Below, piece by piece: positions 7,293 to 35,768 of a stretch of DNA of 64,000 nucleotides. The notes under the pieces were generated by a model that saw only the letters and a list, made by a program, of their open reading frames with translations, ran no database searches and had not been told where the DNA came from. A program made the position numbers and the translations under genes. This DNA comes from an uncultured Clostridia bacterium (lineage in GTDB: Bacteria; Bacillota; Clostridia; TANB77; CAG-508). The stretch covers positions 14,041 through 78,040 of the forward strand of contig CALXVB010000002.1 of the NCBI GenBank assembly GCA_944391855.1, read 5' to 3'. Each line of letters begins with the position of its first letter. Position 1 is the first letter of the stretch.

Positions 7293-7647
7293 AGAGGAGT
7301 AAACCGAATAGTCGCGTATAGCAAAGTCGAAAGACTGCGTACGAGGAAAGTCCGGGCCCTATAGAGCAATGATGCTGGATAACGTCCAGTGAGGGTAACC
7401 TTAAGGAAAGTGCAACAGAAAACAACCGCTAGACTCGAGTCTAGTAAGGATGAAAAGGTGAGGTAAGAGCTCACCACTAATATGGTGACATATTAGGTTA
7501 GTGTAAACCCCATCAAGGGCAACACCGAGTAAAGAAGGTTAATGGCTGCTCGTCAGTCTTCTTGTATTGGTGGCATGATGCATATAGCAATATATGTACT
7601 AGATAGATGACTATTCAAGACAGAACCCGGCTTATAGATTTACTTTT
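7293..7647 (+). ncRNA. rnpB: RNase P RNA (type B)
   Basis: Universal P4 motif GAGGAAAGTCCGGGC, ..AAGGGCAACACCG.., 3' ACAGAACCCGGCTTA, ends that can pair as P1, followed by a terminator. Confidence 0.85.
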
Positions 7648-7665
7648 TACATTTATTACAATAAA

Positions 7666-29753: not shown

Positions 29754-29807
29754 TCAGAAGTTCAAAAAAAAATATACAGCATGGTCATAAAAAAGGAGGA
29801 AAATATT

Positions 29808-31097
29808 ATGACTAATAAACAAAAAGAATTGATGGGTAACTTATTACGGAGTAACTTGTTAGTTTCAACAGGTTGCACAGAACCAATTGCTATAGCCTAT
29901 GCAGCAGCAGTAGCAAGAACTTATTTGAATGAAGAACCTGCAGATATTACATTGCATATTAGTAAAAATATGGCTAAAAATGCAATGGATGCTGGAATTC
30001 CAAATTCAAAATATACAGGTACAGCATTTGTAGCTTCGCTTGGAGCCTTATATGCTAATCCAAAAGATGGTTTTCAATTGCTTGAAAATCTTTCGGATGA
30101 ACAGCATAAAGTGGCAAATCATTTTGCAAAAGAACATGTAAATATCGAAATTGCCGATACAGACAAAGCATTGTATATTGAAGTAGAAATGCAAGGAATT
30201 AAAGTTAAGGCTTCTAGAGATCCCTGTCGATGTTGTAATACTGTTAAGTTAATTGTAACTGATGGACATACTAATGTCAATTTGATTGAAGTAAATGGTG
30301 AAAAAGTATTTGAGTTTAGCATTGACGAATCTACTTCTGAAAGTAAAAATACGGAGAAAATAGATTTTTCTATGAAAGAAGTGTTCGAATATGCAGAAGA
30401 ACTTGAAGATTTACAGATTTTCCAAAAAGCTCTTGACTTAAACAAAAAATTAAGTGAAGTTGGTAAAAGAGATAATTGGGGGTTGAATGTTGGAAAAATA
30501 AAACCTTTCGGTGAAGACACTGCTTTGTCAAGAATTATATCTTCAACAACTTCGGCGATTGATGCAAGAATGGCAGGTGCTCCATATCCCGCTATGGCTT
30601 GTACAGGAAGTGGTAATCAAGGAATTTCCACAACTATACCAGTTTATCAAGCTGGTATCGAGCTTAATGCTAGTATGGATAAAATTTTACGAGCAATAGC
30701 AATAAGCGATTTGACAGCCATCTTTGTAAAGAGAAACTTAAATGTTCTTTCTTACTTATGTGGTGCAGTAATAGCAAGTTGTGGATCTTCTGCAGGAATC
30801 ACTTATTTGCTGGGAGGAGATTATGAAGATGCAGAATATGCAGTAAAAAATGTTTTAGCATCTGTTACTGGAATGTTCTGTGATGGGGCTAAAAGCACGT
30901 GTGCTATGAAGGTCTTGGTTTGTTCCACAATGGCTGTTTATGCAGCTAATATGGCAATGTTAAGTAATAGTAAAATTACACAGAAAATCGGAATCGCTAG
31001 AGAAAGTCTTATAGATACAATAAAAAATGTATCTATACTGGAAAGCGAAACCTCACAAACCATGGATGATACAATAATGAAAATTATTGTAAAGTGA
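29808..31097 (+). CDS. L-cysteine desulfidase family protein (CdsB/YhaM, UPF0597)
   Basis: STGCTEPIAIAYAAA motif; AAGGAGGAAA RBS; holds the only in-frame CGG codon seen (LLRSN, 29851). Confidence 0.7.
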   Translation: MTNKQKELMGNLLRSNLLVSTGCTEPIAIAYAAAVARTYLNEEPADITLHISKNMAKNAMDAGIPNSKYTGTAFVASLGALYANPKDGFQLLENLSDEQHKVANHFAKEHVNIEIADTDKALYIEVEMQGIKVKASRDPCRCCNTVKLIVTDGHTNVNLIEVNGEKVFEFSIDESTSESKNTEKIDFSMKEVFEYAEELEDLQIFQKALDLNKKLSEVGKRDNWGLNVGKIKPFGEDTALSRIISSTTSAIDARMAGAPYPAMACTGSGNQGISTTIPVYQAGIELNASMDKILRAIAISDLTAIFVKRNLNVLSYLCGAVIASCGSSAGITYLLGGDYEDAEYAVKNVLASVTGMFCDGAKSTCAMKVLVCSTMAVYAANMAMLSNSKITQKIGIARESLIDTIKNVSILESETSQTMDDTIMKIIVK

Positions 31098-31117
31098 AAT
31101 GTAAAATTTGAACTTCG

Positions 31118-31150
31118 AATTGGGTGTCCTATTAGGGCACCCAATTCAAG
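31118..31150 (+). terminator. rho-independent terminator after cdsB-like
   Basis: GAATTGGGTGTCC-tatta-GGGCACCCAATTC hairpin. Confidence 0.75.
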
Positions 31151-31212
31151 TGTAAAAGAATAAAAAGTTAAAAGTTAAATAAAAAGCTAAATAAAAAAAG
31201 TTAAAAATAGTG

Positions 31213-31241
31213 TTGACAAAAATAATTAAAAATCATATAAT
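31213..31241 (+). promoter_or_regulatory. perfect sigma-A consensus promoter TTGACA-N17-TATAAT
   Basis: An exact match to both hexamers with a 17-nt spacer. Confidence 0.7.
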
Positions 31242-31273
31242 AAAATAAATCAAGAAAGAAAGGAAAGATATAA

Positions 31274-31318
31274 ATGATATTAATAAATATAATCTCTAAT
31301 TGCTGTTGTATGAATTAA
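31274..31318 (+). CDS. 14-aa leader peptide MILINIISNCCCMN with three consecutive Cys codons (attenuator leader)
   Basis: RBS AAAGGAAAG; TGC TGT TGT at 31301-31309. Overlapping stem 31310-31354, then a terminator. Lies upstream of the cysK-like gene. Confidence 0.5.
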   Translation: MILINIISNCCCMN

Positions 31319-31393
31319 TACTCTGTCTATTGTAGACATGAGTATTAAAATTCATGCCTACAGAGAGATTATATTTTATAAGATAAATTATAA

Positions 31394-31432
31394 AACTATG
31401 TGGGCATTTTTAATACTACACATAGTTTTTTT
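31394..31432 (+). terminator. attenuator terminator: 9-bp stem AACTATGTG/CACATAGTT, 15-nt loop, T7
   Basis: Segment 31340-31358 can alternatively pair with the terminator loop and 5' flank (GGCATTTTTAATACT). Confidence 0.7.
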
Positions 31433-31474
31433 ATTGTTATATATAAAAATAAAAAAAGATTTAGGAGGGTTAAT

Positions 31475-32446
31475 ATGTTTAAAAAGAATGAATTTATAGG
31501 AAATACACCAATGATAAAAATAATTTATAAATATAATGGTAAGATAAAAAAAATATTTGTTAAACTAGAATATTTTAATTTAACTGGAAGTATTAAAGAT
31601 AGAGTGGCTTTTTATATAATTAATAATGCTAAAAAAAGAGGAAAATTAAAAGATGGAATGGCAATAGTCGAAGCAACAAGTGGAAATACAGGTATCGCAC
31701 TATCAGCATTAGGAACTTACTATAAACATCCAGTATATATTTTTATGCCTGATTGGGCAAGTAAAGAAAGAATTAAATTAATGGAAGGATATGGTGCTAA
31801 AGTATTTTTGATTTCAAAAGAAGATGGAGGATTTATAAGGTGTGTAAATGAAGCAAAAAAATTATCTAAAGAACTAGATGGCTATTTGTCTAATCAATTT
31901 GCGAATGAAGATAATTATTTAGCTCATTATGAAACTACCGGAGAAGAAATATTAAATCAAATCCCAGAAAAAATAGGAGGTTTTGTATCTGGTATAGGTA
32001 CAGGAGGAACTTTGATGGGAATAGGAGATAAATTAAAAGAAAAATATAATAATATATATATAACAGCTATTGAACCAGATAAAATGCCTATACTATCTGG
32101 TGGAAAAATATTAGGACAACACAAAATAGAAGGAATTGGTGATGATTTTGTTCCAGAATTAGTAGATAAAAATAAAATTGATAAAATTATACAAATAAAT
32201 GATGATGATGCAATTAACATGTCTAGAAAATTATCAAGACAATTAGGAATAGGAGTTGGAATTTCATCTGGTGCAAATTTGATTGGTAGTATATTGCTTT
32301 CAGATGAAATAGAAGATAATGTAGTTACAGTGTTTGCCGATGATAATAAGAAATATTTATCCACAGACTTGTTTAAAGACATCGATAATAATAAAGAATT
32401 TATTTCCAACAATGTTGAATTATTAAGTTATGAAGAGTTGCATTAA
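31475..32446 (+). CDS. cysteine synthase family PLP enzyme (CysK/CysM-like)
   Basis: SIKDR lysine motif, TSGNTGIA, GTGGT, SSGAN. The ORF-track start at 31400 lies inside the terminator; real start ATG 31475 with AGGAGGG RBS. Confidence 0.85.
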   Translation: MFKKNEFIGNTPMIKIIYKYNGKIKKIFVKLEYFNLTGSIKDRVAFYIINNAKKRGKLKDGMAIVEATSGNTGIALSALGTYYKHPVYIFMPDWASKERIKLMEGYGAKVFLISKEDGGFIRCVNEAKKLSKELDGYLSNQFANEDNYLAHYETTGEEILNQIPEKIGGFVSGIGTGGTLMGIGDKLKEKYNNIYITAIEPDKMPILSGGKILGQHKIEGIGDDFVPELVDKNKIDKIIQINDDDAINMSRKLSRQLGIGVGISSGANLIGSILLSDEIEDNVVTVFADDNKKYLSTDLFKDIDNNKEFISNNVELLSYEELH

Positions 32447-32724
32447 GTAAAATATTTGATAGTTTTGTAATAATAATAAAACTGTAACAATAAAAATATA
32501 ATAATTAAATTAACAATAAAAGAAAATAAGTATAAAATATATAAGTAATTAGTGGAAATCTTGAGAAATAACTATGATTATGATATAATAACAGTATTCA
32601 ATCATATAGTTATTGCCTAAAAAATTTTAGGCGATGAATTAAAATACATCGTTTAAACTTTTAAGGTAATACTATCTGTTTGTAAGCAACTCAAAAAAAG
32701 CAAATTTTAAGGAGGTCATTAACA

Positions 32725-34197
32725 ATGAAAATCACAAACTCTATGAGCGGAAAAAAAGAAGAATTTGTACCTTTAAAAGAGGGCGAAGTAAAAATGTATG
32801 CTTGCGGTATCACTGTATATGATTTAAGCCACATTGGTCATGCTAGGCAAGCAATCGACTATGCTATGATTACGGATTATCTCAGGTATAGGGGATATCA
32901 CGTAACATACGTACGTAATTATACTGATGTTGATGACAAAATCATCATAAAAGCTAATGAGTTAGGGAAAAATGCTTTGGATTTTTCTGGAGAGCAGATT
33001 CTTGAGACTGAGAAGGACATGAAAGCATTACATGTTACAGATGCAGATATAAAGACTAAAGCATCTGAGTATATTCCACAAATTATAAAATTTGTGGAAG
33101 GTCTTATCGAAAAAGGTCATGCATATGCAACAAAGAATGGAGATGTTTATTTTTCAGTAAAGACAGATAGTGAATATGGGAAATTATCTCATAGAAAAGT
33201 AGAGGAACTGCGAAATGGTGTACGTGTCGAACTAGACGAAGAAAAAGAGGATCCAGTTGACTTTGCTTTGTGGAAAGCTGCAAAACCTGGAGAGATTTAT
33301 TGGGAATCTCCTTGGGGAAAAGGAAGACCAGGTTGGCATATTGAATGCTCAGCTATGGCTTTAGATACTCTTGGAGAAACAATTGATATTCATGGTGGAG
33401 GAAGAGATTTAGTATTTCCACATCACGAAAATGAAATTGCACAAAGTGAATCTTTGACAGGCAAACCTTTTGCAAAATACTGGAGTCATTGCGGTCTGAT
33501 AAAGATCAATGGACAAAAAATGGGAAAATCGTTGGGAAATTCCTTAACAATAAGGGATGCTTTAGCAAAGTATAATTATGAAGTGATTAAATGCACTATA
33601 CTTTCTAAACACTACACATCAGATATTGATTTGCATGATAGCGATTTTCAGCTTGCAGAAGGTCATATGTACTATTTTTATAGTACAATCAAAGCAATGG
33701 AAAATTTTATTTCTAGCAATGGGGGAGATGCTACATCTGAAATTCTCGAAGACGAAATTCCAAATACTATCATTTCTAAATTTATTGAAGTGATGGATGA
33801 TGACTTTAACTCAGCAGTAGCAATTGCAAATTTGCACACAATCTTCAAATATGCAAATAACTTAATGAAATCTGCCAAGAAAGCAAACAAACAGATAGTA
33901 GCCAATACTTTGGCAAAGGCTTTGAAAGATTTGAAAAGTGTTTACAAAATTTTAGGCTTTTTTGAGCAAGAACCAGAGAGATTCCTTTTAGAAATGAAGG
34001 AAAAATACCTTAAAGAGCTTAATATCGATGTAGACGAGGTTGAAACCCAGATTTTAAAGAGAGCAGAGGCTAAAAAGAGAAAGGACTTTGAAACAGCTGA
34101 TGCAATTAGAAATGAGCTTGAAGCAAAAGGTATTCTTTTGAAGGATACTAGGGAAGGTACTGTCTGGGATTTGAAAATGCTTTATAACTTTAATTAA
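32725..34197 (+). CDS. cysS: cysteinyl-tRNA synthetase
   Basis: HIGH (SHIGHAR), KMGKS (KMGKSLGN), zinc ligands, full anticodon-binding domain; AAGGAGGT RBS. Confidence 0.95.
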   Translation: MKITNSMSGKKEEFVPLKEGEVKMYACGITVYDLSHIGHARQAIDYAMITDYLRYRGYHVTYVRNYTDVDDKIIIKANELGKNALDFSGEQILETEKDMKALHVTDADIKTKASEYIPQIIKFVEGLIEKGHAYATKNGDVYFSVKTDSEYGKLSHRKVEELRNGVRVELDEEKEDPVDFALWKAAKPGEIYWESPWGKGRPGWHIECSAMALDTLGETIDIHGGGRDLVFPHHENEIAQSESLTGKPFAKYWSHCGLIKINGQKMGKSLGNSLTIRDALAKYNYEVIKCTILSKHYTSDIDLHDSDFQLAEGHMYYFYSTIKAMENFISSNGGDATSEILEDEIPNTIISKFIEVMDDDFNSAVAIANLHTIFKYANNLMKSAKKANKQIVANTLAKALKDLKSVYKILGFFEQEPERFLLEMKEKYLKELNIDVDEVETQILKRAEAKKRKDFETADAIRNELEAKGILLKDTREGTVWDLKMLYNFN

Positions 34198-34267: not shown

Positions 34268-34342
34268 GGTGTTGTAGCCAAGCGGTAAGGCATGAGTCTG
34301 CAAAACTCTGATTCGTCGGTTCGAATCCGTCCAACACCTCCA
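34268..34342 (+). tRNA. tRNA-Cys (GCA), somewhat divergent
   Basis: Acceptor GGTGTTG/CAACACC, D-arm GCCAAGCGGTAAGGC (same as B. subtilis tRNA-Cys), loop CU-GCA-AA, T-loop TTCGAAT, discriminator U, CCA. There are U-U mismatches in the anticodon and T stems. Confidence 0.8.
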
Positions 34343-34485: not shown

Positions 34486-34514
34486 TTGACAAAAAACAAA
34501 AAAAACAGTATAAT
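34486..34514 (+). promoter_or_regulatory. second perfect TTGACA-N17-TATAAT promoter, driving the small ORF and the radical-SAM operon
   Basis: Exact consensus. Confidence 0.65.
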
Positions 34515-34558
34515 ATCACTGGATTTAGCGAATTTTTATATTAAGATAGGAGTAAAAA

Positions 34559-34648
34559 ATGATAATTAGAATGATTAATAATGTAAGATATTTCAATAAA
34601 AATAAAATTGATAACATTTTCTGTACTATTTTTGTGCCTAAATTCTAA
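34559..34648 (+). CDS. 29-aa small ORF MIIRMINNVRYFNKNKIDNIFCTIFVPKF: candidate precursor peptide or regulatory uORF
   Basis: AGGAG RBS 6 nt upstream; own promoter; followed by hairpin 34656-34690; sits immediately 5' of the rSAM operon. Confidence 0.35.
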   Translation: MIIRMINNVRYFNKNKIDNIFCTIFVPKF

Positions 34649-34655
34649 AAAATAA

Positions 34656-34690
34656 AGAGTCAAGGATTTTCTTTGACTCTTTGTTTTTTT
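34656..34690 (+). terminator. terminator/attenuator between the small ORF and the operon
   Basis: AAGAGTCAA-ggattttct-TTGACTCTT + T8. Confidence 0.7.
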
Positions 34691-34730
34691 TAGAATAAAA
34701 TAAATATTAATTTAAGTTAGGAGTGATTTT

Positions 34731-35768
34731 ATGATAAAGGGAATAAAAACAAAAAATATCAAACCAATAGTTAGGAAAAGAATGGATAAACTTGTACAGA
34801 AGTTAAAAGCAAAACCTGAAGTTGAAGGCATAGTTTATTTAAGTGGACTTGCAAATACGGAATACAAAGATTTTATCGATGAATACTCTGATATAGATAT
34901 TGGAATTTTTCTTAATGTTGATAGAGAACATTTACCTAATTGGTTGCCACCATTCTCATTTTATATTGTTATAACAGATCAAGATGGTTTTGATAAGACA
35001 ATGGAAGTGAATTTTCATCAAAAAATTTATGATGAAGAAAAAAATTCACAATGGCATGATTATAAGAAAGAATTTTATAAATATGCTTGTGAGATTGTTT
35101 TTGATAGAAACGGAAGGATAGAAAAGTTAATTAATGAAAAAACAGTTTTTACAGAAGAATATAGAAAACTATTACTATCTCATTTATTATCAAGGATTTA
35201 TTGGATGGTAGAAATTAATCCATTAAATGCAGTAAAAAGAGGATTAATTTTTAATGGAGAAGATTTATTGAATCAAGGATTAAATTATGTAACTGACCTC
35301 CTTTATGTCTATGATAAAAAATTCCCACCTGCTGCAAAATGGAAAATATCTCTATTAGGCAATTTAGACTTCTGTCCAAATAATATAGAAAAAAGAATTG
35401 AAAATTGCTTTATAGTGAATGAAATTTCAGAAGAAGATGTTTTAAGAAGAAGAAAAGAAATGCTTTCAATAACTAAGGAAATAGAAAATAAAGTATTTGA
35501 AGAAGGTCTTTTTAAGTCTACTGAAGATTACATAGAATATGAATATAAAAATTGGAATGCACAGCAAAAACAGTTAAAAGATATTACACAGTATGACATA
35601 ATTGTTTCAAAATTTAACGATATTTCTACAGAAGAAAGAAAAATACTAAAGGGTATATTATGTGAATATTTTATTACAAATTTAGAAGATTTAACTAAAA
35701 TATCAACTGAAGAATTAAATGAAATACAAAAGAATCTATTACATAAAATAATTAAAAAAATTAATTAA
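34731..35768 (+). CDS. nucleotidyltransferase-fold protein (ANT(6)/AadK-like N-terminus)
   Basis: IVYLSGLANTEYKDFIDEYSDIDIGIF resembles the GSRAN..D.DI motif of ANT(6). Confidence 0.5.
   Translation: MIKGIKTKNIKPIVRKRMDKLVQKLKAKPEVEGIVYLSGLANTEYKDFIDEYSDIDIGIFLNVDREHLPNWLPPFSFYIVITDQDGFDKTMEVNFHQKIYDEEKNSQWHDYKKEFYKYACEIVFDRNGRIEKLINEKTVFTEEYRKLLLSHLLSRIYWMVEINPLNAVKRGLIFNGEDLLNQGLNYVTDLLYVYDKKFPPAAKWKISLLGNLDFCPNNIEKRIENCFIVNEISEEDVLRRRKEMLSITKEIENKVFEEGLFKSTEDYIEYEYKNWNAQQKQLKDITQYDIIVSKFNDISTEERKILKGILCEYFITNLEDLTKISTEELNEIQKNLLHKIIKKIN

Follow-up and report, generated by a model that had tools for sequence, protein, structure and literature searches.

The 64,000-nt stretch of DNA analysed here (the window) comes from an uncultured Clostridia bacterium (GTDB lineage Bacteria; Bacillota; Clostridia; TANB77; CAG-508) and corresponds to positions 14,041 to 78,040 of the forward strand of contig CALXVB010000002.1 (GenBank assembly GCA_944391855.1). 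The element under study is the leader of a gene for an enzyme of the CysK/CysM family that depends on pyridoxal 5'-phosphate (PLP) (the cysK-like gene), which is followed by cysS and a tRNA-Cys gene (Table 1). An earlier reading of this DNA by a model that saw only the letters and a list of open reading frames (ORFs), hereafter the sequence-only reading, had named a perfect promoter, a 14-codon leader ORF with its ribosome-binding site, a run of Cys codons and a terminator. Every one of these elements is present, and the analysis reported below indicates, with a probability that we put at about 85%, that the leader is a ribosome-mediated transcription attenuator that senses the supply of Cys-tRNA(Cys).

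Table 1. Positions in the window of the leader elements, the gene that they precede and the genes that follow (SD, Shine-Dalgarno; P0, P1, helices of the long hairpin).
Feature	Position	Strand	Remarks
Sigma-70-type promoter	TTGACA 31213-31218, 17-nt spacer, TATAAT 31236-31241	+	12/12 consensus positions
SD site of leader ORF, AAAGGAAAG	31259-31267	+	6 nt 5' of ATG
Leader ORF	31274-31318	+	14 codons plus stop; peptide MILINIISNCCCMN; ATG 31274, TAA 31316-31318
P0, 5' arm	31286-31297	+	leader ORF codons 5-8; extends hairpin base; inverted repeat I1, RNAalifold consensus
Regulatory Cys codons TGC-TGT-TGT	31301-31309	+	5' strand of helix P1; partner is the switch strand
Inner hairpin	31316-31347	+	-13.3 kcal/mol; first three nt are the leader ORF stop UAA
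Switch strand ("region 2"), CAUGCCUACAG	31353-31363	+	CAUGCCUACA(G/A) across leaders; three mutually exclusive partners
P0, 3' arm	31364-31375	+	pairs with 31286-31297
Intrinsic terminator	31392-31432	+	11-bp stem 31392-31402 / 31419-31429, 16-nt loop, seven Ts 31426-31432
Antiterminator partner, UGUGGGCAU	31399-31407	+	top 4 nt of terminator 5' arm plus 5 loop nt
SD site AGGAGGG of regulated gene	31463-31469	+	outside the switch structures
Regulated (cysK-like) gene	31475-32446	+	323-aa PLP-dependent enzyme, CysK/CysM family, Fn1055-like; Pfam PALP E = 8.5e-63
cysS	32725-34197		own promoter
tRNA-Cys(GCA) gene	34268-34342		directly after cysS

The TTGACA-N17-TATAAT promoter is one of just two perfect sites of this kind in the 64 kb, where shuffled sequences would lead one to expect 0.02, and the leader transcript is predicted to start at about 31248. 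The run of Cys codons was dropped as a statistical oddity, since (TGY)3 occurs seven times in the window on the two strands (about two in shuffled sequences); its significance comes from its conserved context and not from the run alone. The 141-nt leader folds with an energy of -39.2 kcal/mol, compared with -20.9 +/- 3.1 kcal/mol for shuffled sequences (z = -5.9). The terminator expected after the leader ORF (-10.8 kcal/mol) is backed both by ViennaRNA and by the alignment of related leaders. A simple terminator scanner found no sites, and missed this one because its loop is longer than 8 nt and its stem has few G-C pairs, so that this result is not evidence of absence. The ATG of the regulated gene was placed at 31475, which corrects the sequence-only reading. 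The leader therefore presents an SD-led short ORF downstream of a promoter, a series of cognate codons towards the 3' end of this ORF, an intrinsic terminator that separates it from the structural gene, and mutually exclusive antiterminator and anti-antiterminator helices, the latter holding the Cys codons. Every defining feature of the trpL/hisL class that sequence analysis can check is thus found in it.

The distribution of the leader was studied in a scan in which each GTDB species was represented by one genome and the query was an enzyme alignment; it gave 80 loci, nearly all labelled as uncultured gut Clostridia. A homologous leader was present at 14 of these 80 species-level loci of the orthologous enzyme. 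Metagenome contigs were scanned with a pattern made of the hairpin, the switch strand and the terminator, from which the leader ORF had deliberately been left out; a poly-Cys ORF was present in all four matches. In total, 19 distinct leaders from uncultured gut Clostridia were collected, 15 of them upstream of a cysK-like gene, where the sequence-only reading had suggested looking for them, and four upstream of cysS (L084, from the metagenome scan, and L085, L086 and L089, from the look-up of five further CysRS homologues). At L071, cysS lies 76 nt downstream of the cysK-like gene. The proteins adjoining the leaders of the 14 species-level loci are 66-100% identical, and these leaders are matched by nhmmer with E-values of 1e-22 to 1e-40; nhmmer found a single copy in the 64-kb window and no additional copies elsewhere in the 80 loci. 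The occurrence of 19 homologous leaders at two cysteine-related genes supports the earlier proposal of trpL/hisL-style attenuation keyed to cysteine, and the leader presumably controls cysS as well in the related bacteria.

Some further observations concern the loci of this set. A publicly available contig (L001, CALXXG010000142.1) that does not differ from the window in this part carries the label "uncultured Rickettsiales bacterium". The labels of nearly all related loci are Clostridia, Clostridium or other Firmicutes, and the Rickettsiales label is probably a binning or classification error. At two loci (L005:2940-2990 and L022:2900-2975), the terminator of the leader (AACTATGTG...CACATAGTTTTT) is kept 5' of the gene while the leader ORF and the hairpin are gone, and in L022 the retained terminator stands about 35 nt 3' of a perfect promoter; such loci may represent leaders that have decayed or are under a different control. 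A search of 20 leader-less orthologous loci against Rfam returned no element, and neither the leader nor a Cys-rich short ORF was found upstream of the Fusobacterium Fn1055 gene and two other Fn1055-like genes (L090-L092).

The alignment of the 19 leaders bears on whether the short ORF is translated. Its ATG is an invariant alignment column, a purine tract of the GGA/GGAG/AGGG type lies 6-13 nt 5' of it in all the leaders, and all the insertions and deletions between ATG and stop are multiples of three. The peptides have 12-15 residues, with N-terminal residues that vary freely in sequence and number, and the motif N-C-C-C(C) is kept. Three or four consecutive Cys codons, located at ORF positions 9-13, occur in 17 leaders; in the other two the run is interrupted (C-Y-C in L008:2812-2983 and C-C-F-C in L086:2249-2417). 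The codons TGC and TGT are used interchangeably, and the stop (TAA or TAG) follows the last Cys codon by 0-3 codons in each leader. The promoter is perfect (12/12) in 14 leaders, and its -10 box mostly ends 30-34 nt 5' of the ATG. This pattern of conservation is the signature of a translated ORF, from which we infer that the ORF is translated. The Asn residue preceding the Cys run is likewise invariant, as is the segment AAUUG (31298-31302, alignment columns 43-50), which comprises the Asn codon AAU and the first two bases of the first Cys codon and is nevertheless predicted to form a bulge of the long hairpin described below.

A promoter, an SD site, an ORF and a terminator are formally also a complete small transcription unit, so that the leader could be an independent gene for a Cys-rich micropeptide, with the downstream gene on a separate promoter. 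However, the peptide is conserved only at N-C-C-C, while the remainder varies in sequence and length; no strong promoter separates terminator and gene, the promoter scan listing no site in these 42 nt (31433-31474); and the unit accompanies two distinct Cys-related genes whose genomic surroundings otherwise differ. The chance that this explanation is the right one appears minimal.

The RNA structures of the leader are built around a long hairpin of about 90 nt (31286-31329 / 31333-31375), which begins within the ORF, at codon 5. The stem 31310-31322 / 31340-31354 pointed out in the sequence-only reading does exist, but it is merely the middle of this hairpin, and the Cys codons, which had been placed immediately 5' of the stem, are instead contained in the hairpin, where they pair with the switch strand. 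In the P0 region at its base, six of the ten pairs of helices 2 and 3 show compensatory changes in the 19-leader alignment. The P0/P1 hairpin has an energy of -37.0 kcal/mol. Within it lies the inner hairpin, whose 5' arm opens with AAUACUC; in each of the 16 leaders in which this was measured, AAUACUC follows the beginning of the stop codon by 1-4 nt. One pair of the inner hairpin (columns 78:95) is G-C in seven leaders and A-U in 11.

The switch strand has three alternative partners, namely the Cys codons with the end of the leader ORF (helix P1), the segment 31330-31340 in the loop and 3' arm of the inner hairpin (helix P1'), and the segment 31399-31407 of the terminator (antiterminator). 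Standard pairs occupy 88-92% of the alignment cells in each of the three helices, as opposed to 19-62% when the partner is slid. In P1, covariation is seen between the first Cys codon, at its third position, and the base opposite in the switch strand (columns 51:122), the pair being U-A in 13 leaders and C-G in three. The P1' helix (-12.5 kcal/mol) is 89% paired, against 19-48% when slid; of its two compensatory pairs, one involves a base that forms a bulge of the inner hairpin. In the antiterminator 91.8% of the cells are paired (24-62% when slid), and in three leaders a C-to-U change at 31357 is matched by a G-to-A change of the terminator-loop base 31404. In L012, L030 and L086, the switch strand has a G in place of an A, which can still form a wobble pair with the U of each of the three partners. 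In L008, the UUGUAG segment of the inner hairpin carries a G-to-A change, the same that is found in its Cys run, and both partners of the switch strand are weakened in parallel.

The sequence-only reading had let 31340-31358 pair alternatively with the terminator loop and its flank. In the window this pairing is real, and consists of 10 perfect bp (31341-31350 with 31408-31417) plus ATGCC/GGCAT; of it, only the pairing of 31354-31362 with 31399-31407 is kept in the relatives. The long form is confined to the window and its closest relative, L002, and was therefore replaced by the conserved 9-bp core as the antiterminator. The duplex has an energy of -13.6 kcal/mol for the core and of -21.1 kcal/mol with the extension.

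The RNAalifold consensus of the 19 leaders consists of the long hairpin and the terminator. In this terminated state 90.5% of the cells are paired and 13 pairs show compensatory changes, while slid controls reach 30-55%; none of 500 shuffles matched either the paired percentage or the covariation score. For the terminator by itself 98.6% of the cells are paired, with two compensatory pairs.

The nucleotides of the inner hairpin, of the AAUUG bulge and of the terminator stem hardly vary, even though the adjacent proteins are only 66-91% identical, which is what would be expected of a riboswitch or of a protein- or tRNA-binding RNA, in which inner hairpin and switch strand would be stabilized by a ligand or factor, and the ORF would be incidental or modulatory. 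A weak likeness to the trpB motif (RF04312), an orphan riboswitch candidate, points in the same direction. However, much of the unusually high nucleotide conservation is accounted for by the need of the segments to pair with two or three alternative partners, and the structure has neither a multi-helix junction nor a pocket-like architecture. An SD site, an invariant ATG, indels in triplets only, an in-frame Cys run and an adjacent stop in all 19 leaders are unexpected for an untranslated RNA. The likeness to the trpB motif is limited to 20.4 bits (E = 2.2) against a gathering score of 59, and lies mostly on the terminator, so that membership of this family was rejected. More generally, a search of the leader region (31050-31550) against Rfam gave nothing beyond chance-level matches at E <= 10. 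In agreement with the sequence-only reading, which had found no T-box or S-box, the T-box model (RF00230) gave no match in the window at gathering score, nor any within 31050-31550 at E <= 10, and the covariance models of S-adenosylmethionine (SAM)/S-box riboswitches had none in the window or in the leader. The UGGG of the antiterminator was considered as a T-box-like site for the acceptor end of tRNA and dropped, because all the other T-box features are absent. A binding RNA is thus a very improbable explanation of the leader.

The effect of a translating ribosome was modelled by barring the mRNA from pairing as far as 12 nt beyond the first base of the P site and folding the remaining RNA. 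With a Cys codon in the A site and the transcript extending to the terminator loop, the inner hairpin and the antiterminator are predicted in all 19 leaders. With no ribosome and the full transcript, the prediction is the long hairpin and the terminator, again in 19 of 19. A comparison of the alternative folds had been called for in the sequence-only reading. With the stop codon in the A site and the full transcript, P1' and the terminator are predicted in 18 of the 19 leaders.

A mechanism can be proposed on this basis. Transcription would start near 31248, and the leader ORF would be translated while RNA polymerase is still in the leader. When cysteine is plentiful, the ribosome would clear the three Cys codons and arrive at the UAA, where it would melt the 5' arm of the inner hairpin, because the stop codon is the first triplet of this hairpin. 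The 3' half of the hairpin so freed would take the switch strand as P1', and upon release of the ribosome the full P0/P1 hairpin would form again in place of P1'. With the switch strand sequestered by either P1' or P1, the terminator would fold and transcription would end 5' of the gene. When charged tRNA(Cys) is scarce, the ribosome would stall with a Cys codon in the A site, masking the usual partner of the switch strand and leaving the inner hairpin intact, so that the P1' partner would stay locked in it. The free switch strand would then pair with the antiterminator partner as this emerges, capturing the top of the terminator stem and part of its loop, and the block of termination would allow the CysK-family gene to be transcribed. 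Stalling, timing, the role of P1' and the response to cysteine are all deduced from sequence, conservation and thermodynamics, and for the specific role of P1' in attenuation we see an about even chance.

The identity of the regulated gene is relevant to the direction of the response. The 323-aa protein has the PLP-lysine motif SIKDR and a TSGNTG loop, and yet it falls below the curated NCBIfam cut-offs for cysK, cysM and the cysKM subfamily, with 295.5 bits for TIGR01139 (CysK equivalog, O-acetylserine sulfhydrylase A; cut-off 350.95) and 309.1 bits for TIGR01136 (cysKM subfamily; cut-off 344.15). The nearest solved structure is 5B53, that of Fn1055 from Fusobacterium nucleatum (E = 8e-95; next match 7e-67). 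In vitro, Fn1055 converts cysteine and water into serine and hydrogen sulfide, H2S (PMC9865163; PMC9600241). The logic of the leader might accordingly be reversed, with read-through in cysteine excess and termination upon stalling, as would suit a cysteine-degrading, H2S-producing enzyme such as Fn1055. The gene directly upstream (29781-31097) codes for a 438-aa protein with an SDH_alpha (serine-dehydratase alpha-chain) domain (PF03313) and no NCBIfam match, and it is also found 5' of the leader in L002. We take this protein to resemble the cysteine desulfidases of the YhaM/CyuA type, and the presence of such a gene would also fit the reversed logic. The predicted structures, however, are the opposite of what this logic demands, in that the stall gives the antiterminator in 19 of 19 leaders and the ribosome at the stop gives the terminator in 18 of 19. 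Moreover, the leader is also found at cysS in four species, where induction at low charged tRNA(Cys), which is the logic of T-box control and of the uORFC-8-2 motif of Rhodobacterales (PMC8632094), is the only sensible one. We therefore give the reversed logic a very slim chance, and retain attenuation with induction by cysteine shortage.

Several points weigh against this attenuation model. When a stalled ribosome on the full transcript is considered at equilibrium, the antiterminator is preferred in only 10 of the 19 leaders, so that the outcome must rest on co-transcriptional kinetics, as in other attenuators. The antiterminator and P1' show one and two compensatory pairs, respectively, and their support is mostly conservation; in addition, the two helices were derived from the same sequences, and the comparison with slid controls is therefore inflated. 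The inner hairpin and the bulged AAUUG are conserved beyond the need of simple pairing, and a further constraint may exist. As many as 66 of the 80 orthologous loci have no leader, and all the hosts are uncultured metagenome-assembled genomes. Finally, the degradation of cysteine by the nearest characterized enzyme, Fn1055, in vitro is awkward for a gene induced by cysteine shortage, unless the enzyme runs in the synthetic direction in vivo.

The genes around the leader form a cluster in the order desulfidase-like gene, cysK-like gene, cysS and tRNA-Cys. The promoter of cysS is near-consensus (TTGAGA-17-TATAAT with an upstream TG, 32561-32589), and its 5' untranslated region, some 130 nt long, has a hairpin at about 32623-32644 but no T-box. 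No clear terminator was seen between the cysK-like gene and cysS (32447-32724), and read-through from the attenuator could therefore also reach cysS and the tRNA gene. Neither cysE nor other sulfur-assimilation genes were found within 18-46 kb of the window. The second perfect promoter of the window (34486-34514) is followed by AGGAG and a 29-codon ORF (34559-34648, MIIRMINNVRYFNKNKIDNIFCTIFVPKF), by a G+C-containing hairpin with a T-run (about 34656-34693), and, 3' of these, by an SD-preceded 345-aa ORF (34731-35768) without a Pfam or NCBIfam match; the region 34486-34730 looks like a second leader-ORF/terminator unit or a small-protein gene. The Rfam scan of the window returned only tRNA and a class A bacterial RNase P RNA (7296-7650, 293 bits).

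The leader adds to the Clostridia, whose control of amino-acid and tRNA-synthetase genes is usually credited to T-boxes, riboswitches and repressors, a well-supported and conserved case of classical leader-peptide attenuation, in which one cysteine-keyed leader serves both a biosynthetic-type enzyme and cysS. With a covariance model based on the alignment of the 19 leaders, gut metagenome-assembled genomes could be annotated for this family and its short ORFs. A more tentative proposition, which we consider possible but doubtful, has two parts, of which one or the other could hold: the attenuator would be a three-way position sensor and not a simple 1:2 / 2:3 / 3:4 switch, and cysteine would be made in vivo by the Fn1055-like "CysK2" enzymes of gut Clostridia. 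If the former were true, the inner hairpin and P1' would distinguish a ribosome stalled at the Cys codons from one that is 1-4 codons further on, at the stop, replacing the steric masking of segment 2 in trpL-type leaders; a third alternative helix that reads the position of the ribosome is a testable refinement of the attenuation model. As to the latter, the regulation by the leader hints at the direction in which the Fn1055-like enzymes work physiologically. Many gut anaerobes have such enzymes, and surveys of the gut microbiome currently class them as H2S producers that degrade cysteine. Given induction by cysteine shortage, they would probably make cysteine in these bacteria, possibly directly from serine (or O-acetylserine) and the abundant sulfide of the gut.

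Comparison with known regulators groups the leader with the classical attenuators of amino-acid operons in Proteobacteria (trpL, hisL, pheL, thrL, leuL and ilvL). As in these, an SD-led short ORF carries a run of cognate codons, the regulatory codons are in segment 1 of a set of alternative 1:2, 2:3 and 3:4 helices, the structural gene has an intrinsic terminator 5' of it, and stalling of the ribosome promotes the antiterminator. Unlike them, the leader occurs in Clostridia and is keyed to cysteine, and it has no sequence relationship with them and no match to their Rfam leader families. A further difference is that its stop codon is too distant from segment 2 for a terminating ribosome to cover this segment, a masking job that the extra conserved hairpin and P1' appear to take over.

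The Cys T-box leaders of Firmicutes (at cysS/cysES and cysK) occupy the same niche, with a terminator and an antiterminator and higher expression at low charged tRNA(Cys). In a T-box, however, the RNA binds the tRNA itself, whereas here uncharged tRNA would be sensed indirectly, through the translating ribosome. The trpB motif consists of a hairpin and a terminator, with the antiterminator in the right shoulder of P1 (PMC11109978), and shares with the Clostridia leader this hairpin-plus-terminator outline.

Two cysteine-keyed systems have been described in other bacteria. The uORFC-8-2 motif of Rhodobacterales cysS is a predicted Cys-codon attenuator, with the Cys codons in the first stem and an intrinsic terminator (Brewer et al. 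2021; PMC8632094), and thus resembles the present leader, four examples of which are likewise found at cysS. The alpha-proteobacterial motif, however, has two tandem Cys codons, usually at positions 14-15, in place of three or four at positions 9-13, and is found only at cysS, while the Clostridia leaders are mostly at the cysK-family gene. The defining features of uORFC-8-2 are not those of the present leader, the two being set apart by the published description and not by sequence comparison (PMC8632094). In mycobacteria, polycysteine leaderless short ORFs, predicted earlier by Seliverstov et al. (2005; PMC1262725), have been shown experimentally to act through a stall that unmasks a ribosome-binding site (Canestrari et al. 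2020; 10.1101/834739). They share with the Clostridia leader the use of Cys-codon runs to sense cysteine via stalling, the association with cysteine-metabolism genes at several loci, and a regulon set by the ribosome. They differ in being leaderless, whereas the Clostridia ORF is SD-led with a 5' untranslated region of roughly 25 nt, and in their output, which in mycobacteria is the unmasked ribosome-binding site and here is an intrinsic terminator, with the SD site of the gene outside the structures.

The leader family is absent from Rfam 15, and literature searches found no description of such a Cys-codon leader in Clostridia or other Firmicutes. Because of the Rhodobacterales and mycobacterial examples, cysteine-keyed attenuation is not unprecedented, and the Clostridia leader is a new instance of an already known mechanism.

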